Notes under the pieces: generated by a model
Databases searched by the model: none
What the model was told of the DNA's origin: nothing
The model's input: only the letters and a program-made list of their open reading frames with translations
Made by a program: the position numbers and the translations under genes
Sequence record: OR896830.1
From: Escherichia phage LinBro
Direction: 5' to 3' (one strand)
Length of the DNA stretch: 64,000 nucleotides
Shown here: positions 30,409-63,850 of the stretch, piece after piece
Position numbering within the stretch: the stretch's first letter is position 1
How the letters are laid out: the number at the start of each line of letters is the position of its first letter

Positions 30409-31209
30409 CATCTGGTCAATACACTCGCAAGGTGTACCAGTTCTCTTATGAACTTCTCCGCATTTCTACGGAGTGTCGGACTATATCACGTAGTAGTAAT
30501 ACTACCGTTGCACTTGGGAATGGTCATTAGCTTACCACCCTACTCTACTCAGTTCATACATTAAGTATGCTTTTCGATAGTCTCTGAACGTTTCTCTGTT
30601 AGGAACTCTAAAATACTATTGTTTACTAAGGTATGCAATTGCTCTCTGCATATTATCAACGCTATCTGCAAGCAACCCCAAAGCCCTATTGCAATTGTGG
30701 CACAACATACCTCTTACTTTTCCGGTTTTGTGGTCATGGTCAACGACAAGTTTAGCCTTATGCCGTGAACTATTCATGATAAAACCTTCACCGCCACAAA
30801 TTTGACATTTGTAATCACAGTTACGAAGTAGGGTTTCAACCTCTTCTCTTTCTAAACCATATGTTCTCAGGTAGTAATTCTTAACTCTACCTTTCTCTCC
30901 GCAATGCGAAGAACAATAAACTTGCCTTGCTGTTCTAGGCATGAACACCTTCTCACAGCTAGGACATTTCTTAGTAAGAACCCTATGTTCTGCTCTTCTG
31001 TCAAATTTTAATACGCAACTTCTGCACCGTTTTTGATTGTATTGGTATGGTTTAAACTCTGCACCACACTCAGTACACAATCTCTCTTTGTAACCTGCCA
31101 TTGTCTCTCTCCTTTGCTTTAGGAGTCCTAACAGAGACTTCGCTGCTGATTACCATATCTTTACAGACTTAGGCTTCCAGCAATTCACAACGTTTTACAT
31201 GCGCCACTG
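30409..31209 (-). mobile_element. group I intron interrupting the DNA polymerase gene (carries an HNH ORF)
   Basis: Exon 1 ends in U (31210) and intron ends in G (30409); P1 helix exon UAUGCGU with guide GCGCAUG (31204-31198); core elements GTTCAGAGACTA (30589-30578) and GATATAGTCC (30487-30478) on - strand; exon lengths sum in frame (2173+557=2730). Confidence 0.75.
30616..31101 (-). CDS. intron-encoded HNH / endonuclease VII-family homing endonuclease
   Basis: Cys-rich zinc ribbons (CTECG, CRSC, CPSC, CQIC) and VVDHDHKTGKVRGMLCHNCNRALG catalytic motif. Confidence 0.7.
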   Translation of the reverse strand: MAGYKERLCTECGAEFKPYQYNQKRCRSCVLKFDRRAEHRVLTKKCPSCEKVFMPRTARQVYCSSHCGEKGRVKNYYLRTYGLEREEVETLLRNCDYKCQICGGEGFIMNSSRHKAKLVVDHDHKTGKVRGMLCHNCNRALGLLADSVDNMQRAIAYLSKQ

Positions 31210-44975: not shown

Positions 44976-46045
44976 TTAACCAGCACCCAATCTTTTTAGG
45001 TGGTGAGAGAAAAACTTTTGACTCACTTAATAAACACTACCCAAAAATCTTTGAGCTTTATAAGCAACAAAAAGCACAAGACTGGTCAGAAGATGAGTTC
45101 CCTTTTGAACAATCACGTCTTGATTTTGAGAGTGTCCCAGCATCAATGTCAGGTGTAATGCTTGAGATTCTTAAGTGGCAGTGGGAAGCAGATACCCAAG
45201 TTGCTAAGAGCTTGGCATTTGCCTTCGCACCATTTATCTCTGATGACATCTATGCAACTGCAATTATGAAGCAGTCTGAGATTGAAAACCTACATGCTCT
45301 TACTTACTCAGAGATTGTAAGGCAATGTATTAAAAACCCTGAAACAATCTTAGATGAGATTAACCAGAATGTTGCTGTGCAAGACCGATTAAAAACTGTG
45401 AATCGTGTTCTTGAAGAATTACTGGATGAAGGTATAAACTATCGTCTGAATTATGTTCGTGATTCACTTCTGGACAAAGACCCTTTACACTTCCATAAAG
45501 TGATTCTGAAAGGGCTGTTTGCAGTGACTGCACTTGAAGGTATATCTTTTATGGCATCATTTGCATGTACTTTTGCACTTGATGCTCAAGATAAATTTCA
45601 GGGTATTGCTCAAGCTGTCCAGAAAATTATGCTTGATGAAATCCTTCACACTAAAATTGATATTGAAGTTTTAAAAGAAACTTTAAGAGATGATGAGTGG
45701 CAGAAAGCTTTTCAACAGATTCTTCCAGAGATTAAAGTAATCTTAGATGAAGTAGTTGAAAGCGAAGAAAAATGGTCGTATTATATCTTCTCTGAAGGAC
45801 GTGCTGTAGTTGGTTTAAATACAAAGCTTCTTCATGAGTGGGTTTACTATAATGCCGCCCCACTGTACGATATGTTTGGCATTCCCAGAGATTTTGTAGC
45901 TCCTAAAGAACCACCTTTGAAATATATGATTAAAAAGATGGAAATTGATAAAGAGCAGAATGCTAATCAGGAGCAACAGAACGGTGCGTATTTATTGAAT
46001 ACTGTTGTAGATGACTTAAATAGTGGATTTTTAGAGGTTCCTTAA
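44972..46045 (+). CDS. nrdB: ribonucleotide reductase class I small subunit
   Basis: Ferritin-like di-iron protein with E..H ligand motifs (EILHTKIDIE); start placed at ATG 44972 after RBS aaggag rather than the upstream track start 44912. Confidence 0.8.
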   Translation: MINQHPIFLGGERKTFDSLNKHYPKIFELYKQQKAQDWSEDEFPFEQSRLDFESVPASMSGVMLEILKWQWEADTQVAKSLAFAFAPFISDDIYATAIMKQSEIENLHALTYSEIVRQCIKNPETILDEINQNVAVQDRLKTVNRVLEELLDEGINYRLNYVRDSLLDKDPLHFHKVILKGLFAVTALEGISFMASFACTFALDAQDKFQGIAQAVQKIMLDEILHTKIDIEVLKETLRDDEWQKAFQQILPEIKVILDEVVESEEKWSYYIFSEGRAVVGLNTKLLHEWVYYNAAPLYDMFGIPRDFVAPKEPPLKYMIKKMEIDKEQNANQEQQNGAYLLNTVVDDLNSGFLEVP

Positions 46046-46287
46046 TGACTTATGTAATTTACTCCAAAACTGGATGCCCTCAGTGTGAGACTGCAAAGAA
46101 TTTTGCAAAAGCTCGTGGTATTGACCATGTTGTGAGAATGTTAGGGCAGGATTATGAACTATCAGACCTGATAGATATTGCACAGATGCCAGTTCGCCAG
46201 ATGCCATTCATCATGAAAACGGATGGTCAAAATCTAAAACCTGTTGGAACGCTACAGAATTTTATGACAGAGGTGAATAATGCTTAA
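46045..46287 (+). CDS. nrdH: glutaredoxin-like protein (NrdH-type redoxin)
   Basis: 80 aa with CPQC redox motif at N-terminus, coupled to nrdB. Confidence 0.65.
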   Translation: MTYVIYSKTGCPQCETAKNFAKARGIDHVVRMLGQDYELSDLIDIAQMPVRQMPFIMKTDGQNLKPVGTLQNFMTEVNNA

Positions 46288-46486
46288 ACGCATTTGGGAA
46301 GGTTTGGTTATTGATGCACCAGCCATTGTGATTGGTATGCTTGTTGTTAACCTATTTACTGATTTTGAACAAGGTTCATTGTTTGGAGCCATGTTACTAT
46401 GGGTTATCTTTGAAATATTAGAGATACAACTAGGCATCACTGAAAAACTAAGAAAACTCGTTTCAAAGTTTTCTAAAAAGATTTAA
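46280..46486 (+). CDS. small membrane protein
   Basis: 68 aa with two hydrophobic segments. Confidence 0.3.
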   Translation: MLKRIWEGLVIDAPAIVIGMLVVNLFTDFEQGSLFGAMLLWVIFEILEIQLGITEKLRKLVSKFSKKI

Positions 46487-53295: not shown

Positions 53296-53787
53296 ATGAA
53301 TAAGGGTTATTTTGAAAGATACCTAATATATGAACCAGATACAGGTTTATTAATTTGGAGAGTAACCCTTTGCAGTACCGCTATTGCTGGTAATGTGGCT
53401 GGCACAAGGTCTAAGAAGGGTTATATCCAAGTCCAGATAAATAAGAAGAGGTACTATGCACATAATATTGCATGGATTATGTCTGGAGGTGAGATACCAA
53501 GTGGATATGAGATAGACCACATAGACCTTGATAAATCTAATAATAAGTTGGAGAATTTAAGACTTAGCACAAAGTCACAAAATCAGAGGAATAGGGGTAT
53601 ATACAAGAATAATAAAACTGGTGTGAAGGGTGTAAGTTTTTGTAAACAAACAGGTCTTTACAAAGCAAGAGTCATGCTTTACCATAAAGAATACTTTTGT
53701 GGAAGATTTAAAACGGTAGAAGAAGCAAAAGAAGCTGTAATTAAAAAGCGAATAGAACTTCATGGTGAGTTTGCAAGACATAACTAA
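53296..53787 (+). CDS. free-standing HNH homing endonuclease with AP2-like DNA-binding domain
   Basis: YEIDHIDLDKSNNKLENLRLSTKSQN HNH_3-like motif followed by GVKGVSF...GLYKARV...FKTVEEAKEA AP2-like segment. Confidence 0.65.
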   Translation: MNKGYFERYLIYEPDTGLLIWRVTLCSTAIAGNVAGTRSKKGYIQVQINKKRYYAHNIAWIMSGGEIPSGYEIDHIDLDKSNNKLENLRLSTKSQNQRNRGIYKNNKTGVKGVSFCKQTGLYKARVMLYHKEYFCGRFKTVEEAKEAVIKKRIELHGEFARHN

Positions 53788-53801: not shown

Positions 53802-55583
53802 ATGAGTAAGTCACTTTACGCAGTACCAGCAGGTCTTAATGCAGATGCTTACAAGGCATCACATATATATCAGTATCCAGATGCTACGCAATATCTTATG
53901 TTGAACCTGACACCACGTAGTGATAAATGGTTTAACAGCCCCTTAGCAATTGACGGTGTAGTAGCTTTTGGTATTCAACGTTTCGTTAAAGATTACTTGA
54001 TAGACCATTGGAATGCTACGTTCTTTGAACGTGACAAAAAAGAAGCAATTGACGAAATCTTAGAAGTCATGAATGGTGTTCTGGGCAAAGATGCTATCGG
54101 TCGAGAGCATTGGGAGGCACTTCACGACTTAGGTTATCTACCAGTTGAAGTATACGCTGTAGAAGAAGGCACAGTTGTCCCTATGCGTGTTCCGATGATT
54201 GTTTTCCAGAACACTGTTTCAGGTTTCCATTGGGTAGCAGGTTATCTGGAAGATGCTTTCTCTGCTGAGATTTGGAAGGCTTGTACCATTGCAACTATTG
54301 CATTGCACTACAAACGTATCTGTAAGAAGTGGGCTGACCTTACTTGTGACAACGACTTGCATTTGCCTTATCAGTGCCATGACTTTGCTATGCGTGGTAT
54401 GTCCGGCTTTACTGATGACGCATTTAACGCTGTAGGCCACTTAACCAGCTTTAAAGGAACTGATAGCTTCCCTGCTGTGTATACGGCTAAACGAATCTAT
54501 GGACAGTCCTACCCAATCTCTGATATTGGTAGCTCTGTACCAGCCACTGAGCACTCTGTAATGTGTGCAAACATTGCTTGGGAAGGTGGTAATGAGTTGA
54601 TTGAAGAAGAAAGACGCTTTAAAGGTGAGTTACAGACCTTCCGTCGTTTCTTAACAGAAACTTACCCAACTGGTATTGCAAGTATTGTTTCAGACACTTA
54701 TAACTTCTGGAGAACTGTGTCAGAAATCTTACCAGCACTTCGTAAAGAAATTATGGAACGTGATGGTAAGCTGGTAATTCGCCCTGACTCTGGAGACCCT
54801 GTACATATTGTCACAGGCTATAAAGCAATCCACTTAGAGTGTGCTAAGAAGGCTTATTATGAGCACCTAAGCAAGCTGGAAGCTAGTGACACAATGTTGA
54901 ATGCTGTTCTGAACATGAAGCTTGAAAACATCAACTATGGTATTGCTGGATGGCTACTGTCAGAAGGCTACGAAATGGTTGTTGACAGAGAAGACTTTGA
55001 AGTTGCTGATACAGTGATGTTGAAAAATGCTTATATGGTTGGCTCTGCAAACGTTGTAACACGTCCTGTAGCAGAGATTGATGGAGCTATTAAGACCCTG
55101 TACAACATCTTCGGAGGGACTATTAACTCTAAAGGGTTTAAGGTACTGGATGAGCACATCGGCCTTATCTATGGTGACTCTATCACGCTGGAACGTGCAA
55201 ACGAAATCCTGAAGCGTCTGTATGAAATGGGTTTTGCAAGCTCTAACGTAGTGTTTGGTGTAGGCTCTTACACTTACCAGTACATGACTCGCGACACCTT
55301 TGCATTTGCTGTCAAAGCAACTCTTGCAAGCATTGGTGGTAAAGAGATTATGCTTGCAAAAGACCCTAAAACAGATAGTGGTGTTAAGAAATCTGCCTTT
55401 GGTGGTGTAGCACCTATGTGGGATGGTGATAAGCTGAAAGCTGTAGATGGCTATGGATTCCAGAGTTTTGCAGATGTACTTGACCACCAAGCTTGTGCTT
55501 TACGTTTAGTCTTTAGCGACTCTGAGCAGTTCGGTTATACAACTCTTGGAGATATTCGAAATAATATTGACAAGCAGCTTTAA
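53802..55583 (+). CDS. nicotinamide phosphoribosyltransferase (NAMPT/NadV)-like protein
   Basis: N-terminal ADAYKASHIYQYPDAT resembles the NAMPT signature (DxYK..H..QYP); 593 aa. Confidence 0.65.
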   Translation: MSKSLYAVPAGLNADAYKASHIYQYPDATQYLMLNLTPRSDKWFNSPLAIDGVVAFGIQRFVKDYLIDHWNATFFERDKKEAIDEILEVMNGVLGKDAIGREHWEALHDLGYLPVEVYAVEEGTVVPMRVPMIVFQNTVSGFHWVAGYLEDAFSAEIWKACTIATIALHYKRICKKWADLTCDNDLHLPYQCHDFAMRGMSGFTDDAFNAVGHLTSFKGTDSFPAVYTAKRIYGQSYPISDIGSSVPATEHSVMCANIAWEGGNELIEEERRFKGELQTFRRFLTETYPTGIASIVSDTYNFWRTVSEILPALRKEIMERDGKLVIRPDSGDPVHIVTGYKAIHLECAKKAYYEHLSKLEASDTMLNAVLNMKLENINYGIAGWLLSEGYEMVVDREDFEVADTVMLKNAYMVGSANVVTRPVAEIDGAIKTLYNIFGGTINSKGFKVLDEHIGLIYGDSITLERANEILKRLYEMGFASSNVVFGVGSYTYQYMTRDTFAFAVKATLASIGGKEIMLAKDPKTDSGVKKSAFGGVAPMWDGDKLKAVDGYGFQSFADVLDHQACALRLVFSDSEQFGYTTLGDIRNNIDKQL

Positions 55584-55597
55584 AAGTATATGATAAG

Positions 55598-55619
55598 AGG
55601 CTCCTACGGGAGCCTTTTT
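55598..55619 (+). terminator. rho-independent terminator
   Basis: AGGCTCC-tacg-GGAGCCT hairpin followed by TTTTT. Confidence 0.65.
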
Positions 55620-55636: not shown

Positions 55637-55972
55637 ATGAAAATCAAAGAAATGAACATTAACGTTGTCCTAGAAGAACGTTGGGAGAACATTAAGAAAC
55701 CTGAAGATGGTAAAAAGTTCCTTAACAAAATTTTAGTAGCAGCTAAAGAAGAACTGACTGGCAAGATTGCAGCAGCAATCACAATAAAAATCTGTGTAAA
55801 AGGTCTTCCACAACATCACCAATTTGCACTTGACGAGTTTAAAGAAAGCTTCTACAATCCAAACAAACAGATGCTTGAAAGTAACTTTGCAGTGTCTACA
55901 AGTATCGTCCATGACAGAAGCTTTATCCTTTACAAGAATATGAGAGGTGAGTCATGCAAGCATATTGGATAG
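55637..55972 (+). CDS. hypothetical protein
   Basis: 111 aa ORF. Confidence 0.3.
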   Translation: MKIKEMNINVVLEERWENIKKPEDGKKFLNKILVAAKEELTGKIAAAITIKICVKGLPQHHQFALDEFKESFYNPNKQMLESNFAVSTSIVHDRSFILYKNMRGESCKHIG

Positions 55973-56130
55973 AAATTTTACTGTCACTTGGTAGTGTAGC
56001 AGTATTTGTTTACCTTCTTTGCAAGTACTATGCAGAGCACAAGAAGTGTGATTACTGCAACGGGGAAGGGTACACAAGAGCAGGTTGTTGCCCTATTTGT
56101 GGTGGTTCTGGTAAAATGTTTAATAAGTAA
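55954..56130 (+). CDS. small membrane protein with DnaJ-type zinc finger (CxxCxGxG x2)
   Basis: 58 aa ORF below track cutoff: N-terminal TM helix then CDYCNGEG...CPICGGSG. Confidence 0.35.
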   Translation: MQAYWIEILLSLGSVAVFVYLLCKYYAEHKKCDYCNGEGYTRAGCCPICGGSGKMFNK

Positions 56131-56158
56131 TTTAACAGTAAACTAAGAGGAAAGTATT

Positions 56159-58525
56159 ATGCGCATGGTAAATGACCACGCAGAAGTGATTAAGAGTTCA
56201 ACTTCTTTGGAGACATCTCAAGCACAGATTACAATGACACCTGAAATGTTCAGCCTTCTGAGTTCTGGTGTATACACATTCAAAGAAAGGGCAGTGATTC
56301 GTGAACTGTCATGTAATGCAGTAGATGCTCAGAAAGAAGCTGGAAAAGAGAACATCCCATTCCATGTGCATTTACCTACTCGATTTGAGCCTTACTTTGA
56401 AGTCCGTGACTTTGGAACTGGTTTAACCCATGACAAAGTAATGAGTTTGTACCTGAACTATGGGGCTTCTACGAAGAATGACTCTAATGATTACATTGGT
56501 GCAATGGGTATCGGCTCAAAATCACCATTTGCAATTGCTCAGTCATTCACAGTGTCTAGCTATGTTGATGGTGTTGTTAATAAGTACTCTGTTTACCTTG
56601 AGAATGGTATACCTCAAGTAACTAAGCTTACTACTAACCCAACAAATGAACCCAATGGTTTAGCTGTACGTGTGGCAGTTGCTGACCACCGTATTTCAAA
56701 GTTCTTTGAAGAGGCTGGTCATGTATACTCATACTTTGCTGTAAAACCAGAAAGTAACATTGTATATGATGATGTGTTAGCAGATATGAACGTCATTGCT
56801 CGTGAAGAAGGTGTTTATGATGCCATGATTCATAAGCAAAGCTGGCGTTCTAGTGGTAACAGGACGGAGTTTAATGTGGTGATGGGTAATATTGCCTATC
56901 CAGTGAACATGGAAGCATTACTTGGTGATGATTTCTTCAAAGTCTTGCCAGAGTTTTTCCGTAGGAGCGTAGACCTTGTAAACATTTACATGCCTATTGG
57001 TTCAGTCGCTATTGCAGCTTCTCGTGAAGCATTGCAGATGAATGATACGACAAAAAATGTTATCATTGAGGCTACTAAAAAGATAACTGAAGCAATTACA
57101 AAGGATGTTATCAAGAAAGTTAATAGCCAACCTACACTCATGGATGCTGCACAGGCTTATGCTGAGTTACGTTTGAACTCACGAGAGATGTTTAATGCTG
57201 TGTGTCCAAAGTTAGAGTGGGGAGGCGTTAAGCTTGATTCTTTGGAAGAAGAATTACTAAACATTCGTCGTGGGATTATCTACGCAGAAGACGGCTCAGT
57301 CATTTATGAACGTGACGGCAAAGGTAATATTAAGGTTGACAGTAAAGGAAACAACATTCCTAAAGTGGACTACCTATACAATCCAGTTGCTTATGTTAAG
57401 TTCAACTCTTTAGAGAGTAAGATTCGTGCAACAGCACTTTCCTACACTCAAGAGGCGAGCATGTTCAATATCTTTGGTGCAATGCGTAAAAGCCAAATTG
57501 AACAGTTTTTGTTCGTGATTAATGACCGTCGCAATAAAAACGGTACTGAAAAGACTGTAGGCCGCAATCAGATTCTGCGTGGTGCATGTCGAGACTACGC
57601 CAGTGAGTCAAGTCTGTTTCACAGATATAATGGTATTGTGTTTGTATTCTCGACTGAAAAAGAGTTAGACGACCTAATCAATCTACACAAACTTGATAAA
57701 AGCTTGTTAAAGATTGTGAAAATGTCTGATAAGGAGCACCATTACCAGCGCAAAGAAGCTGTAAGGGGTGTTGTAAAACTCTGGAAAGCTGTTCCAGCAG
57801 AAGGTGTAGCTTCCTATAAAGAGGTTTCAGAGGACTTTGATACAATTGAAGAACCTCAGCTTTACATTAAGGCAGTTGGTGACACAGTTGATGGCGAATG
57901 TTTTTGCTCATCTCCAGAAGATGTAGCTAAGTCAGTCGCTAATGTTCTAGGGAAGACAGTCTATGTTTTCCGAAAAGCAAATTGGAAAAAGATACCAGAA
58001 GACTGGATTGAAGTAGATGAGAAGCTCTTGAACGACAGCTTAACTGATGTTCACTGGATTAATCATAACAGGTATATGACACGTATCTATATGAATGGTG
58101 TTCTTGACCTTACAAGCAGTTGGATTATCACCAGAAACTTTACATTCAATAACAGGAAGATTTCTCGTGGTTATTGCTATTCACGAGATACTAACAAAAC
58201 TATCTTCCTAGAAGGCAATGAAGATGCTGTAGAGGCAATGTTCGGTAAAATCCAATACGTTGCTGCACCATTTGCATACACTTATACTGTTAGTGTATTG
58301 AAAACTTTGAAAGACTGTCTTGACAATGATACAAAGCTTTACAAGAAAATTAAGAAAGCTGGTGACCGCATGGTCATTAAGGTGACAAACTACCTTTCAA
58401 AAAGAAAACAAGAAAACTTCTTGCTTTCTCATTTAGATTGGAATAAAGTGTCGCCTATCGAAGTGAGTAAGTTCTTAGGCTTTGATGTGAAGTGTGTTCC
58501 AGAAGGGACTACAATTTACGATTAA
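56159..58525 (+). CDS. rIIA: rIIA-like protein with N-terminal GHKL (Bergerat-fold) ATPase domain
   Basis: ATPase motifs IRELSCNAVDA (N box), VRDFGTGL (G1), GAMGIGSKS (G2); 788 aa followed by rIIB-sized ORF. Confidence 0.6.
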   Translation: MRMVNDHAEVIKSSTSLETSQAQITMTPEMFSLLSSGVYTFKERAVIRELSCNAVDAQKEAGKENIPFHVHLPTRFEPYFEVRDFGTGLTHDKVMSLYLNYGASTKNDSNDYIGAMGIGSKSPFAIAQSFTVSSYVDGVVNKYSVYLENGIPQVTKLTTNPTNEPNGLAVRVAVADHRISKFFEEAGHVYSYFAVKPESNIVYDDVLADMNVIAREEGVYDAMIHKQSWRSSGNRTEFNVVMGNIAYPVNMEALLGDDFFKVLPEFFRRSVDLVNIYMPIGSVAIAASREALQMNDTTKNVIIEATKKITEAITKDVIKKVNSQPTLMDAAQAYAELRLNSREMFNAVCPKLEWGGVKLDSLEEELLNIRRGIIYAEDGSVIYERDGKGNIKVDSKGNNIPKVDYLYNPVAYVKFNSLESKIRATALSYTQEASMFNIFGAMRKSQIEQFLFVINDRRNKNGTEKTVGRNQILRGACRDYASESSLFHRYNGIVFVFSTEKELDDLINLHKLDKSLLKIVKMSDKEHHYQRKEAVRGVVKLWKAVPAEGVASYKEVSEDFDTIEEPQLYIKAVGDTVDGECFCSSPEDVAKSVANVLGKTVYVFRKANWKKIPEDWIEVDEKLLNDSLTDVHWINHNRYMTRIYMNGVLDLTSSWIITRNFTFNNRKISRGYCYSRDTNKTIFLEGNEDAVEAMFGKIQYVAAPFAYTYTVSVLKTLKDCLDNDTKLYKKIKKAGDRMVIKVTNYLSKRKQENFLLSHLDWNKVSPIEVSKFLGFDVKCVPEGTTIYD

Positions 58526-58604: not shown

Positions 58605-59714
58605 ATGACTACTAAAACTAAAGCACAGATTGACGCAGAAATTTACAAACTGGTTAAAGAAGGTAAGCTGACTAAAACAGCTATTGCACAGAAATTTAAT
58701 ACTTCAACCCGTTCAGTTGGTCGTGCTGTAGAGCGTCATGAAGCAACTTTAAAAGGGGATAAGAAGGCAACTTCTACACCAGCTACGAAGACTTTGAAGC
58801 AAGTTGCTAAGACATTTAAAAAGAAAGCTGACAAACCAGTTGAAAAGGTCGTTAAAGATGCTGTACAGAAAGCTCCGGTAAATAAACTGCATGAAGCTAT
58901 GCAGAAAGATGACAAGATTGAGTACATGATTACTGGTGACTCTGTAATTATGACTTATGGTTCAGAATCTGAAATTGTTGAGTCTACTCATCCGAACTAT
59001 CAAGAGATTGTAGTTCATGTTGTGAAAGGTGAGTTCAAAAAAGCCTTTGAATTGATGAACATTCGTAAGTCTATCGAAAACTTCACTCAGGGCGCTATCA
59101 CAATCAAAGGTGACAAGTTATTCTACGGTGCTGTTGAGATGCGTTCTACTCTGGTTGACCGTATTCTTCACATGATGAAGACTGGAGATAAAGGTTTCGA
59201 ACGCCTTGTGATGTTCTTCGAAAAACTGATGGAAAACCCATCTAAAGACTCTGTAGAACAACTTTGGGGCTTCGTATCTCACCTTGATGTTGAAATTGAT
59301 GAAGAAGGCTACATCATTGGTTGGAAGAAAGTATCTACTCGTGAAGGCAAGCTGGTTGACTCCCACACCTACAGAGTACCTAATGATTTGGGTAACATTG
59401 TAGAAATGCCACGTTGGATGGTTGATAATAACCGTAACGTGACTTGCTCTCAAGGTCTTCATGTTGGTGCTTGGGATTATGTTCGTTGCTTCTCAGGTGA
59501 TACAATTCTGAAGGTTCGTGTCCATCCACGAGACGTTGTATCCGTACCAACTGATTACAACGATATGAAGATGCGCTCGTCTCGTTATGAAGTTGCAGCA
59601 ATCGTTGATAATCAACGTAAAGTACTGAAAGCATGGGATGGCAAGACTGAAGCTTTGCATGTCATCGTTGGCACTGCTGGGGAACTTATCTCTCAGCGTA
59701 AACGTGAAATCTAA
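58605..59714 (+). CDS. rIIB: rIIB-like protein
   Basis: 369 aa ORF immediately downstream of the rIIA-like gene (conserved pairing); no independent motif. Confidence 0.45.
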   Translation: MTTKTKAQIDAEIYKLVKEGKLTKTAIAQKFNTSTRSVGRAVERHEATLKGDKKATSTPATKTLKQVAKTFKKKADKPVEKVVKDAVQKAPVNKLHEAMQKDDKIEYMITGDSVIMTYGSESEIVESTHPNYQEIVVHVVKGEFKKAFELMNIRKSIENFTQGAITIKGDKLFYGAVEMRSTLVDRILHMMKTGDKGFERLVMFFEKLMENPSKDSVEQLWGFVSHLDVEIDEEGYIIGWKKVSTREGKLVDSHTYRVPNDLGNIVEMPRWMVDNNRNVTCSQGLHVGAWDYVRCFSGDTILKVRVHPRDVVSVPTDYNDMKMRSSRYEVAAIVDNQRKVLKAWDGKTEALHVIVGTAGELISQRKREI

Positions 59715-59730
59715 TAAGTAATTTCTTAAA

Positions 59731-59753
59731 AGGCTGCTTCGGCGGCCTTTTTT
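59731..59753 (+). terminator. rho-independent terminator
   Basis: AGGCTGC-ttcg-GCGGCCT hairpin (one G-U pair) followed by TTTTTT. Confidence 0.6.
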
Positions 59754-62669: not shown

Positions 62670-62871
62670 AAAGACACGGAAAATTATCCGGTCAGCAGTA
62701 TTTATTGGAAGAAATGAAGTGATTCCTTTTACAGCAAATGATGTGATAGTCTACAGGAAAAAATTAGCATTCAGTTATTGCTTACGTGGCTTTATCTCCC
62801 AGCCATTAGAAGATTTTAAAAATCGTTGTGGTAAAGGCATCATCATTCAAGAGGCAATTATTCATGGCTGA
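62644..62871 (+). CDS. hypothetical protein
   Basis: 75 aa ORF. Confidence 0.25.
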   Translation: MKVILARDKKTRKIIRSAVFIGRNEVIPFTANDVIVYRKKLAFSYCLRGFISQPLEDFKNRCGKGIIIQEAIIHG

Positions 62872-63064
62872 CTTCTGCAAAGACTGTGCTATCGAGATGT
62901 TTGGGCGTGATACAGGTGATTTAAAAGGTCTTATCACTGAAGATGACTTTAAAGCTGGCTACGCAATGCCAGTAATCTGTGAAGGTTGTGGGTGCATCTG
63001 GGTAGACCACGAAGGACAGCGTGTAAAACCTTCAGAAGATAAAGAGTCTTGGGAGAGATGTTAA
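62828..63064 (+). CDS. small cysteine-rich (zinc-binding) protein
   Basis: CKDC...CEGCGC; true start probably internal Met (MADFCKDC). Confidence 0.3.
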   Translation: MVKASSFKRQLFMADFCKDCAIEMFGRDTGDLKGLITEDDFKAGYAMPVICEGCGCIWVDHEGQRVKPSEDKESWERC

Positions 63065-63850
63065 ATGGGTATTGTAAAAATAATCAATGGTGATATCTTT
63101 GCCGCATTTGATAAAGGTAAGTTTGACATCATCGGTCACGGTTGCAACTGTATGAATTTAATGGGTGCAGGTATCGCTGACAAGATTTCTAAACTTTACC
63201 CAAAAGCATATGAGACCGATACAGAAGTTTATCTATATGCAGGTGGTATAGGACACAAGCCCTGTGAAAATTTACTAGGCAATTTCTCTGTAGCACGTTT
63301 AGAACAAGGCCGTATAGCTAACCTTTACACTCAGCTTAAGACTGGTAAAGATGCCCGATACAGTGCTTTAGAATCATCTTTGAAACAGCTTAACAGATAC
63401 TGTGAAGTTAACCAGTTGAAGAAAGTTGGTCTACCTATGATTGGTGCAGGTATCGGTGGGCTAGACCCTCAAGCCGTCACAGTTATCATTAATCAGGTGA
63501 TGAAGAGTGTAGATGTGTATCTGTATGTCTATGAAGGAGAGATGTACCACAAGTTACGCTCAGGTTGGAAGAACTACTGTGAACCAGAATACTTTGCAGG
63601 TGTAGTAACGTTCACAGACAATACAGTTACCCTCTTCAGACGAAGAAAAGGTAAGATACATCAAAGTAACCCTCCGGTTGAAAAGATGTCTCTGAGTAAC
63701 GCTCTAGTTACCCACCTGTCGAAGAGCAATCACAGAATTGCAGTAACATTTGGCAGTGATGCAGATACTTATATCTATGCAAGGACTGATGAGGGTATTG
63801 AGTTAATCTTCTCTTCACCAGAGCTTACCTTCTTAGACGCAAAGAACTAA
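63065..63850 (+). CDS. macro-domain (ADP-ribose-binding/processing) protein with C-terminal extension
   Basis: IINGDIF...DIIGHGCNCMNLMGAGIADKI and PMIGAGIGGLDP match the two glycine-rich ADP-ribose-binding loops of macro domains; 261 aa. Confidence 0.55.
   Translation: MGIVKIINGDIFAAFDKGKFDIIGHGCNCMNLMGAGIADKISKLYPKAYETDTEVYLYAGGIGHKPCENLLGNFSVARLEQGRIANLYTQLKTGKDARYSALESSLKQLNRYCEVNQLKKVGLPMIGAGIGGLDPQAVTVIINQVMKSVDVYLYVYEGEMYHKLRSGWKNYCEPEYFAGVVTFTDNTVTLFRRRKGKIHQSNPPVEKMSLSNALVTHLSKSNHRIAVTFGSDADTYIYARTDEGIELIFSSPELTFLDAKN

Follow-up and report, generated by a model that had tools for sequence, protein, structure and literature searches.

Organization of the locus

The window, a 64-kb stretch of DNA assigned to a Felixounavirus genome, encodes a 58-residue protein on the plus strand directly upstream of the rIIA gene. 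This protein combines a hydrophobic N-terminal segment with two CxxCxGxG motifs. The features at the locus are listed below.

55567..55594, plus strand: promoter-like sequence TTGACA-16-TATGAT between nadV and the 111-residue gene (consensus scan only)
55595..55618, plus strand: terminator-like hairpin directly 3' of the promoter-like site (consensus scan only)
55637..55972, plus strand: gene for a 111-residue protein (phrog_4262), the upstream neighbour, conserved with the zinc-finger ORF in Ounavirinae
55942..55951, plus strand: Shine-Dalgarno-like sequence GAGAGGTGAG, with the end of its GAGGT core 5 nt 5' of the ATG
55954..56130, plus strand: 58-residue zinc-finger ORF, ATG at 55954 and TAA at 56128-56130 (stop included in the range)
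55966..56022, plus strand: transmembrane segment WIEILLSLGSVAVFVYLLC, codons 5-23, the best 19-residue window (mean Kyte-Doolittle 2.11)
56047..56112, plus strand: CDYCNGEG and CPICGGSG, codons 32-53, one predicted Zn(Cys)4 knuckle hairpin (C32, C35, C46, C49)
56159..58525, plus strand: rIIA (phrog_612, E 6e-189), 28 nt downstream of the zinc-finger ORF
58605..59714, plus strand: rIIB (phrog_609, E 1e-88), last gene of the unit
59728..59751, plus strand: terminator-like hairpin after rIIB (consensus scan only)

The ORF translates as MQAYWIEILLSLGSVAVFVYLLCKYYAEHKKCDYCNGEGYTRAGCCPICGGSGKMFNK (58 aa) and includes the peptides YYAEHK and AGCCPICGGSGK. Both its extent and its overlap with the end of the preceding gene had been proposed in an original prediction made from the sequence, and both were confirmed: the frame runs from ATG to TAA and shares 19 nt with the 111-residue ORF. 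A strong ribosome-binding site precedes the start codon and is located within the 3' end of the upstream gene, an arrangement that suggests translational coupling of the two ORFs. The same GAGAGGTGAG sequence is found in phages warpig and Mushroom, and the Mushroom record carries an annotated ribosome-binding site at the equivalent place.

The unit probably begins at the promoter-like site with its adjoining hairpin (55567..55618) and probably ends at the hairpin at 59728..59751. Between them, the zinc-finger gene is probably co-transcribed with the 111-residue gene and then rIIA and rIIB. On one side of the gene lie NAD-salvage genes, and on the other the rII genes, which counter Rex.

Prior annotation and genomic context

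The gene is already catalogued as ORF131 of phage Felix O1 (Felix01p243; NP_945023.1) and belongs to phrog_3931, whose profile is matched over its full length (E 1.8e-33; all 58 residues aligned to positions 1-59 of 59). The Felix O1 gene is the same in every respect, with 58 residues and the same site between ORF130 and rIIA. Annotations are present in Felix O1 ("hypothetical membrane protein"), Mushroom ("DnaJ-like, contains cysteine-rich domain"), Bas63, SUSP1, Moogle and Pistou, and the GenBank records of Mushroom and Pistou carry labels such as "heat shock protein" and "chaperone protein DnaJ". Dune and warpig, the closest relatives, have an intact ORF, but their records omit the gene. 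The description of the gene as unannotated therefore holds for dune and warpig, but not for the annotated phages named above. No functional study emerged from literature searches covering the locus tags, DUF5351 and transmembrane DnaJ-like zinc fingers of phages, and a search on Felixounavirus transcriptomics returned unrelated papers only. The main value of the present analysis lies in annotation, as a conserved 58-residue gene is dropped by several gene callers and consistent annotation is warranted.

The gene follows phrog_4262 and directly precedes rIIA in the window and in Mushroom, Bas63, Moogle, SUSP1, Pistou and Felix O1. The pair formed with the 111-residue gene recurs in Moogle, SUSP1, Pistou, Felix O1 and one metagenomic contig. 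In Wc4 the gene precedes a large gene in the rIIA position, with no gene of ~111 residues annotated and the neighbours unlabelled. The three RB49-type homologues examined instead follow a glutaredoxin (NrdH) gene, and the one in Phi1 lies far from rII. The position upstream of rIIA, which the original prediction had called unusual, is thus as described, but all Ounavirinae genera examined share it as a fixed arrangement. The T4 rIIA.1 gene was considered as a positional counterpart and rejected; its product is an unrelated soluble helical protein without cysteines.

The 111-residue neighbour has few diverse homologues and no match in Pfam or NCBIfam, and its AlphaFold2 model (pLDDT 53) is too poor for fold comparison. 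In Felix O1, RT-PCR placed the flanking ORF130 and ORF1 (rIIA) at a 25-min peak (PMC3185647). From this peak of its neighbours we infer that ORF131 is expressed in the middle period.

Coding potential and conservation

Across 22 distinct nucleotide versions of the ORF, pN/pS was 0.09 in the reading frame but 2.08 and 0.93 in the two alternative frames, and the variable columns were distributed 7/5/29 over the three codon positions. The ORF was intact in all of the 24 related loci read, so a check for its disruption in close relatives did not refute the original prediction. The main clusters at 90% identity contain 262 and 5 sequences, and five frameshifted or truncated entries each form a single-member cluster.

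The CxxCxGxG motif occurs three times in the window, twice in the 58-residue ORF and once in an endonuclease VII-type HNH gene. The chance frequency was evaluated over the six frames of the window (926 stop-free segments, 60,824 residues); 50 block shuffles yielded a mean of 0.04 segments with one motif and no segment with two. The pair of motifs in this ORF is far above chance.

These data establish the ORF as a genuine, conserved gene under purifying selection. That it might be a chance ORF or a non-coding overlap, as its short length, its overlap with the previous gene, its omission from the records of the nearest GenBank relatives and the five defective database entries could suggest, is a negligible possibility already refuted by the conservation data, given the in-frame pN/pS with its codon-position pattern, an architecture that persists in other phage genera and a second phage family at identities as low as 37%, a motif pair absent from the shuffles and a strong ribosome-binding site.

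Identity across Felixounavirus is 90-100%. More distant homologues, at 37-55% identity, are found in Mooglevirus, Suspvirus, EcSzw-2, Kolesnikvirus, Wc4/Arno162 and RB49-type Krischvirus, and all retain the transmembrane segment and the four cysteines. A word-indexed homologue search recovered close relatives only. An exhaustive profile search gave 1180 matches, the majority of them multi-repeat DnaJ-like proteins matched via the knuckle alone; the architecture of a small transmembrane protein with a single knuckle was represented by only about ten clusters at 50% identity. The viral-contig matches L025-L031 and those in Synechococcus S-RIM2 and Pbunavirus are long proteins with an embedded knuckle and were not accepted as family members.

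The predicted zinc-knuckle module

The two motifs named in the original prediction, CDYCNGEG and CPICGGSG, are both present, beginning at C32 and C46, and their four cysteines are invariant in all homologues, comprising every Ounavirinae genus examined and the RB49-type T4-like phages. The spacing between the second and third cysteines is 11-13 residues among the homologues and 11 in most. Only five residues follow the second motif, forming a basic tail (KMFNK; KKFKK in relatives).

AlphaFold2 models the protein as a helix followed by a zinc-knuckle hairpin (pLDDT 82). The best Foldseek matches of this model in the PDB are anti-TRAP, followed by DnaJA2, BSD2 and DnaJ cysteine-rich domains. The predicted model superimposes on anti-TRAP with an rmsd of 1.1-1.3 Å over 29-31 residues (probability 1.0; E 0.04 for the match at 1.1 Å over 31 residues), and the alignment with 3lcz has no gaps and places both cysteine pairs in the same register. 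Sequence similarity to DnaJ is weak, with E 0.025 for DnaJ_CXXCXGXG and E 0.011 for the DnaJ cysteine-rich structure 1exk, the top PDB sequence match. The motif, the invariant cysteines and the model together point to zinc binding by C32, C35, C46 and C49.

None of the curated thresholds was reached. The DnaJ cysteine-rich family PF00684 scored 15.3 bits against a gathering threshold of 32.7 and matched only at profile positions 37-65 of 65, and the DnaJ model TIGR02349 scored 16.9 bits against 377. The corresponding values were 19 bits against 27 (E 0.0017) for DUF5351 (PF17302), 10.2 bits against 32 (E 0.78) for PF15777 and 10.1 bits against 65 for the RtpA model NF058604.

The CxxCxGxG pattern and its conserved glycines are common to the phage protein and the DnaJ cysteine-rich domain (PF00684). 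In DnaJ, four repeats form two zinc centres through the pairing of non-adjacent repeats (1exk), and the cysteine-rich domain is flanked on one side by the J domain and G/F region and on the other by the substrate-binding domains. The phage protein differs in having two adjacent repeats, which allow one Zn(Cys)4 site, in lacking the other parts of DnaJ and in being anchored to the membrane. Its soluble part is half of a DnaJ cysteine-rich domain, with one zinc site and no J domain, and since all curated thresholds are also missed, the protein is "DnaJ-like" but not a DnaJ. The proposal of a DnaJ-type zinc centre stands in this restricted sense, as the motif, the weak sequence matches and the predicted fold agree with it while only half of the domain is present.

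Anti-TRAP (RtpA of Bacillus; PDB 2bx9, 3lcz and 3ld0) matches the model best in structure and has the same cysteine spacing. It is a stand-alone protein of about 53 residues that acts purely through binding another protein. Anti-TRAP is soluble, whereas the phage protein has an N-terminal transmembrane helix and a five-residue tail. The C-terminal helix of anti-TRAP drives its assembly into trimers and dodecamers. A dodecamer is mentioned in the title of PDB entry 3lcz.

The architecture of the phage protein is also resembled by that of the plant thylakoid protein FIP (At5g02160), which after removal of its transit peptide consists of a hydrophobic anchor and a C4 finger of two CxxCxGxG motifs without a J domain (PMC5915565). 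FIP is eukaryotic, plastid-targeted and reported only in land plants, and the likeness, taken from the published description, is one of resemblance only. The same zinc-knuckle module is common in phage genomes, occurring in small stand-alone DnaJ-like proteins such as phi92 gp070 and many "uncharacterized" BFVD entries, and in inserts of HMO-2011-type DNA polymerases. The listed BFVD knuckle entries carry no functional name beyond "DnaJ-like".

Membrane segment and predicted topology

The single N-terminal transmembrane helix claimed in the original prediction was upheld by the hydrophobicity of residues 5-23 and by the AlphaFold2 model, in which residues 3-28 form a helix with pLDDT 76-89. 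In 14 of 14 family members the residues preceding the hydrophobic window include no lysine or arginine, and those following it include at least one. This distribution predicts an N-out/C-in topology, a call that is not decisive because the post-helix segment of Mooglevirus-type members is net acidic (one K/R against five D/E) and Wc4 has a lysine close to the N-terminus (K4), within the hydrophobic window.

Proposed function

We consider it reasonably probable that the protein serves Felix O1-type phages (Ounavirinae) as an accessory module that binds other proteins on the cytoplasmic side of the inner membrane. The protein would be bitopic, with a periplasmic N-terminus of four residues, one spanning helix and about 35 cytoplasmic residues, in which a single zinc ion would be coordinated by C32/C35 and C46/C49 within a knuckle hairpin. 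This knuckle would be equivalent to one of the two zinc centres in the DnaJ cysteine-rich domain, with its closest likeness in the zinc module of anti-TRAP, and may attach to a partner protein on the cytoplasmic side in order to hold, recruit or block it. Action by partner binding is likely because the protein has neither a J domain nor catalytic features. Precedents for protein binding are provided by anti-TRAP, whose binding of TRAP is stated in the titles of PDB entries 2zp9 and 3ld0, and by FIP, a binder of FtsH5 with a transmembrane segment and two CxxCxGxG motifs (PMC5915565).

In a published CRISPRi-ART screen, knockdown of the SUSP1 homologue gp080 gave a value of 1.05 (p 0.11, "Not Fit"; PMC11879866 supplement). 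This homologue is therefore dispensable in the laboratory as judged by knockdown, not deletion. Because the gene is dispensable on a laboratory strain of E. coli, its role is probably a conditional one, in host takeover or counter-defence. Presence in all Ounavirinae genera examined, strong purifying selection, a site between NAD-salvage and rII genes and yet dispensability in the laboratory together make up the profile of a conditional factor in host interaction or counter-defence. The PADLOC defence-system models gave no meaningful match.

A more specific reading, which we regard as unlikely, makes the protein a third component of the Ounavirinae rII module, perhaps together with the 111-residue protein. 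It would serve as a membrane anchor, its cytoplasmic knuckle recruiting or regulating the otherwise anchorless RIIA and RIIB at the inner membrane, or would directly neutralise a membrane-bound abortive-infection effector such as RexB. Such a role would explain both the fixed site upstream of rIIA and the dispensability on a defence-poor laboratory strain. If true, a partnership with RIIA/RIIB would bear on the long-unsolved rII mechanism.

It is quite unlikely that the protein is a redox-active thiol protein that performs CxxC disulfide exchange or acts as a zinc-thiolate switch at the membrane together with a phage glutaredoxin. The divergent T4-like homologues Phi1 ORF046, P0046 and P0082 overlap the end of the glutaredoxin/NrdH gene by 11 nt, which would fit such a function, but adjacency of small genes in phage early regions is weak functional evidence, and in Ounavirinae the gene lies far from the phage glutaredoxin gene (46045..46287, compared with 55954). 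Disulfide isomerase activity has been reported for the plant DnaJ-like zinc-finger membrane proteins LQY1 and CYO1. An extra cysteine beside C46 is frequent among the homologues; however, it is not conserved, being replaced by I in Wc4 and by P in P0009, P0082 and P0126, and both the glycine pattern of the CxxCxGxG motifs and the modelled fold correspond to those of knuckles that bind zinc.

A function as a holin or other lysis-timing protein, permeabilising the inner membrane or regulating a holin, is very unlikely, although its proximity to the "rapid lysis" genes rIIA and rIIB would fit and the spanin genes lie just 5.4 kb downstream. The strictly conserved part of the protein is the zinc knuckle, and we know of no described holin with this feature. 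Homologues are also present in RB49-type T4-like phages, which carry their own t-type holin. Felix O1 has no holin gene adjoining its lysin, and gp131 (= ORF131) was among the five holin candidates of Whichard et al. 2010 (PMC3185647). The small size, single transmembrane segment and basic tail agree with a holin, but as a criterion these properties are very unspecific, and the orientation expected from the K/R distribution is the reverse, N-out/C-in. The absence of a fitness cost on knockdown of the SUSP1 homologue (a homologue, and not a deletion) weighs against this function, because a sole holin should be needed for plaques. In the annotation of Mushroom the holin is a different gene (class III, N-in/C-out) and this one is called DnaJ-like; that holin gene was not found in the first 30 kb of Mushroom or in 20-66 kb of Bas63, and the case against a holin draws on the other evidence. 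A suitable name for the product would be "membrane-anchored zinc-knuckle protein", and the terms "DnaJ", "heat shock protein" and "holin" should be avoided.

The GenBank labels in Mushroom and Pistou and the weak DnaJ model matches would imply a DnaJ-type co-chaperone that delivers substrates to DnaK, a function that requires a J domain for DnaK stimulation; this is exceedingly improbable and already contradicted by the domain content, with no J domain bearing the HPD motif, no G/F region, no C-terminal substrate-binding domains, only two of the four repeats, and PF00684 and TIGR02349 scores far below threshold.

Coding potential of the zinc-knuckle ORF

The original prediction of a 58-codon open reading frame that overlaps the preceding gene and encodes an N-terminal transmembrane segment followed by two CxxCxGxG motifs proved correct in each of these respects. 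The window is a Felixounavirus genome, and this region, in which the NAD salvage genes prs and nadV lie upstream and the rII genes downstream, is 99% identical to Escherichia phages dune and bumzen.

Features surrounding the zinc-knuckle gene
55567-55594, +: near-consensus promoter-like site TTGACA-16-TATGAT, between nadV and the 111-aa gene
55595-55618, +: strong terminator-like hairpin abutting the promoter-like site, between the same two genes
55637-55972, +: 111-aa gene upstream of the zinc-knuckle ORF, family phrog_4262 (E 9e-68, function not assigned)
55942-55951, +: purine-rich GAGAGGTGAG, whose GAGGT core ends 5 bases 5' of the zinc-knuckle ATG
55954-56130, +: zinc-knuckle ORF, 58 codons (ATG 55954, TAA 56128-56130), product MQAYWIEILLSLGSVAVFVYLLCKYYAEHKKCDYCNGEGYTRAGCCPICGGSGKMFNK
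56159-58525, +: rIIA, the next gene, 28 nt 3' of the zinc-knuckle ORF
58605-59714, +: rIIB, after rIIA
59728-59751, +: terminator-like hairpin 3' of rIIB

The start codon is located 19 nt within the 3' end of the 111-aa ORF, the top-scoring hydrophobic 19-residue window of the product spans residues 5-23 (mean Kyte-Doolittle 2.1), and the CxxCxGxG motifs begin at C32 and C46. Across all six frames of the window this motif occurs three times, twice within this ORF and once in a free-standing, homing-type endonuclease VII-type HNH gene beside the DNA polymerase gene (30616-31101, -). Block shuffles (n=50) produced no stop-free segment with two motifs and a mean of 0.04 with one.

The ORF is intact, at unchanged length, in 24 related loci. 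Among its 22 distinct nucleotide versions pN/pS was 0.09 in the zinc-knuckle frame versus 2.08 and 0.93 in the two other frames, with 7, 5 and 29 variable columns at codon positions 1, 2 and 3, respectively; by region, the ratio was 0.12 for the transmembrane part and 0.08 for the zinc-finger part. The ORF is thus a protein-coding gene under strong purifying selection, and the selection and conservation data together exclude a chance ORF.

An alternative open frame of 46 codons (56006-56146, +) lies in the +1 frame of the gene and, because its pN/pS is 2.1, is not coding. In five database entries (P0003-P0007) the ORF shifts to the +1 frame or is cut short, the sites differing between entries, and four of them (P0003 and P0005-P0007, 63 aa) run into this alternative frame. 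Each is a single-member cluster, versus 262 and 5 members in the intact clusters, and they may represent sequencing errors or occasional real losses.

The hairpins and the promoter-like site, all matches from consensus scans only, bracket a four-gene unit of the 111-aa gene, the zinc-knuckle gene, rIIA and rIIB, with a second promoter-like site 5' of rIIB. In Felix O1, RT-PCR places the peak of ORF130 (the 111-aa gene) and ORF1 (rIIA) at 25 min (PMC3185647). The Felix O1 counterpart of the zinc-knuckle gene, ORF131, is missing from that timing table (PMC3185647), so we infer that the gene is co-transcribed with its neighbours and translationally coupled.

Family distribution and gene neighbourhood

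Over its full length the protein aligns with phrog_3931 (E 1.8e-33), a family whose function is not assigned, and translated and profile searches recovered its architecture in another six Ounavirinae groups.

Ounavirinae homologues
Mooglevirus: Moogle and Sf13-Sf19, ~52% identity
Suspvirus: SUSP1 gp080
EcSzw-2
Kolesnikvirus of Erwinia: phiEa21-4 and Pistou
Pectobacterium phages Wc4 and Arno162, 37%
Metagenomic relatives

A second lineage comprises RB49-type T4-like phages (Krischvirus), represented by Phi1 ORF046, RB49 Q7Y3T0 and the more distant entries P0046 and P0082. All four motif cysteines (C32, C35, C46 and C49) are unchanged in every homologue compared from both lineages, as are G37, G51 and G53. 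SUSP1 has Asp in place of G39; the additional Cys at position 45 varies among members, and the second-to-third Cys distance is 11 in most of them, 12-13 in a few. When 1.8 billion representatives were searched exhaustively with the profile, 1180 matched at E<0.001, most of which are multi-repeat DnaJ-like proteins aligned via the knuckle alone, while the small layout of a transmembrane segment plus single knuckle accounts for ~10 clusters at 50% identity. Weaker matches in cyanophages, Pbunavirus and several viral contigs were large proteins with an embedded knuckle and were rejected as members.

Wherever neighbours are annotated in Ounavirinae, the gene lies directly 5' of rIIA and follows a ~111-aa phrog_4262-type gene, usually with the 19-nt overlap. 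The two small genes are conserved as a pair in the genera checked, although the 111-aa gene is not annotated in Wc4, where the zinc-knuckle gene directly precedes a large gene in the rIIA position and the neighbours carry no functional labels. The metagenomic contig of entry P0015 stops within the downstream gene, itself unnamed. The 111-aa protein had no Pfam or NCBIfam matches, and its AlphaFold2 model (pLDDT 53) was unusable.

In the three divergent RB49-type loci examined (L033, which is Phi1, L044 and L046) the start of the zinc-knuckle gene and the 3' end of a glutaredoxin (NrdH) gene overlap by 11 nt, a tight coupling that is conserved in all three, and in Phi1 the homologue is far from rII. 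In the two longer loci, L033 and L044, it precedes a 55.2-type gene, so named in Phi1; a 95-aa gene occupies this position in L044.

Predicted structure and membrane topology

AlphaFold2, run with a nine-sequence alignment, gave a model of mean pLDDT 82 with a helix at residues 3-28 and, after it, short strands and turns. The best PDB matches were Bacillus anti-TRAP (3ld0, 2bx9 and 3lcz; rmsd 1.1-1.3 A over 29-31 residues, probability 0.99-1.0, E 0.04-0.25), together with DnaJA2, the BSD2 zinc-finger protein and the E. coli DnaJ cysteine-rich domain. None reached E<0.001, in keeping with a compared part of ~30 residues. By sequence, the top PDB match was the DnaJ Cys-rich domain 1exk (E 0.011), anti-TRAP aligned without gaps, and Pfam and NCBIfam matches were all sub-threshold (DUF5351, E 0.0017; TIGR02349, E 0.003; DnaJ_CXXCXGXG, E 0.025; anti-TRAP, E 0.78). 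The four repeats of DnaJ (1exk) hold two zinc ions; like anti-TRAP, the phage protein has two adjacent repeats able to hold one. Its soluble part is therefore a predicted DnaJ-type zinc knuckle, half of a DnaJ cysteine-rich domain. The DnaJ-type zinc centre originally proposed is upheld in motif and predicted fold, but as a half domain only and with no J domain.

In none of the 14 family members considered does a Lys or Arg precede the hydrophobic window; each has one or more within the 15 residues after it, and many carry Glu or Asp at its N-terminal edge. By the positive-inside rule, the charge pattern suggests a short N-terminus outside and the knuckle in the cytoplasm, a compartment in which Zn-thiolate sites are stable. 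For two kinds of member the assignment is weak: those of Mooglevirus type, with a net acidic linker, and Wc4, with K4 near the N-terminus, inside the hydrophobic window.

Prior annotation and likely role

The description of the ORF as unannotated holds for its closest relatives, dune (MN850636) and warpig (MN850637), whose records omit the intact ORF and account for that description. It does not hold for Felix O1 (ORF131/Felix01p243, 'hypothetical membrane protein'), Bas63 ('putative membrane protein'), Mushroom (KP143762, 'DnaJ-like, contains cysteine-rich domain', labelled 'heat shock protein') or Pistou (OQ818706, 'chaperone protein DnaJ'). The gene is thus already catalogued rather than new, uncharacterised, and shared by all Ounavirinae genera examined; in practical terms, it calls for a corrected annotation and offers a modest lead for experiments. 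The Mushroom and Pistou labels overstate a two-repeat motif match.

Our literature search found no paper on the function of this family and one functional datum, a CRISPRi-ART screen of SUSP1 in which the homologue AVU07_agp080 scored 1.05 (p 0.11, 'Not Fit'), meaning that the phage can do without it on the E. coli cloning strain of that study (PMC11879866). In the same screen rIIA was 'Semi-Fit' and rIIB 'Not Fit', and the paper also shows that SUSP1 RIIA and RIIB matter solely when RexAB is present (PMC11879866).

An enzyme role is ruled out because the ~35-residue cytoplasmic tail is essentially one zinc knuckle. The DnaJ cysteine-rich domain acts in substrate and DnaK handling, and PDB entry titles describe anti-TRAP bound to TRAP and BSD2 to RbcL. 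Plant FIP, with an equal anchor-plus-two-repeat layout, binds the membrane protease FtsH5 (PMC5915565). Since these knuckles act by protein binding, we read the phage protein as a putative protein-binding module that, by analogy, would hold, recruit or block a partner on the cytoplasmic side of the inner membrane. Core replication or assembly is a less fitting role than conditional host interaction or counter-defence, because the gene occurs in every Ounavirinae genus examined, is dispensable in the laboratory and lies among accessory genes, with prs and nadV upstream and rIIA, rIIB and a DarG-like gene downstream. Given the gene's constant place ahead of rIIA, the most interesting candidate partner is RIIA/RIIB or the membrane target that these protect, albeit an improbable one: the RB49-type homologues examined adjoin nrdH, and T4 rIIA.1 is unrelated.

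In the T4-like lineage, the coupling to nrdH would point instead to a redox-active thiol protein. Against this, 9.7 kb separates the gene from the phage glutaredoxin gene (46045-46287, +) in Ounavirinae, the additional Cys varies among members, and the Gly residues follow the zinc-knuckle pattern. A holin is disfavoured. Whichard et al. 2010 listed gp131 among five possible holins purely by size and membrane character, but knockdown of the SUSP1 homologue carried no fitness cost, the Mushroom annotators assigned a class III N-in/C-out holin to another gene, and the orientation predicted here is the opposite. Moreover, it is the knuckle, not the helix, that is conserved, and homologues occur in T4-like phages, which carry a t-type holin. 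Domain content excludes a DnaJ co-chaperone.

Other genes of the region

A 68-aa ORF (46280-46486, +), apparently with two hydrophobic segments, overlaps the end of the glutaredoxin gene by 8 nt, a pair that echoes the RB49-type arrangement of nrdH and the zinc-knuckle gene; the 68-aa and zinc-knuckle proteins are not similar.

Additional features
53296-53787, +: HNH/AP2-type free-standing homing-type endonuclease, inserted between prs and nadV
62828-63064, +: small Cys-rich ORF, 78 aa from GTG, with CKDC ... CEGCGC
63065-63850, +: 261-aa protein with an N-terminal part of ~160 residues resembling the DarG antitoxin macro domain (ADP-ribosyl glycohydrolase)

The 261-aa protein, labelled 'phosphatase' in relatives, matches NF048014 at E 1.3e-12, under the curated cut-off; encoded 7 kb downstream of the zinc-knuckle gene and near prs and nadV, it may be a counter-defence enzyme. 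The Cys-rich ORF, of which Bas63 annotates a shorter version, may encode a second small zinc-binding protein.
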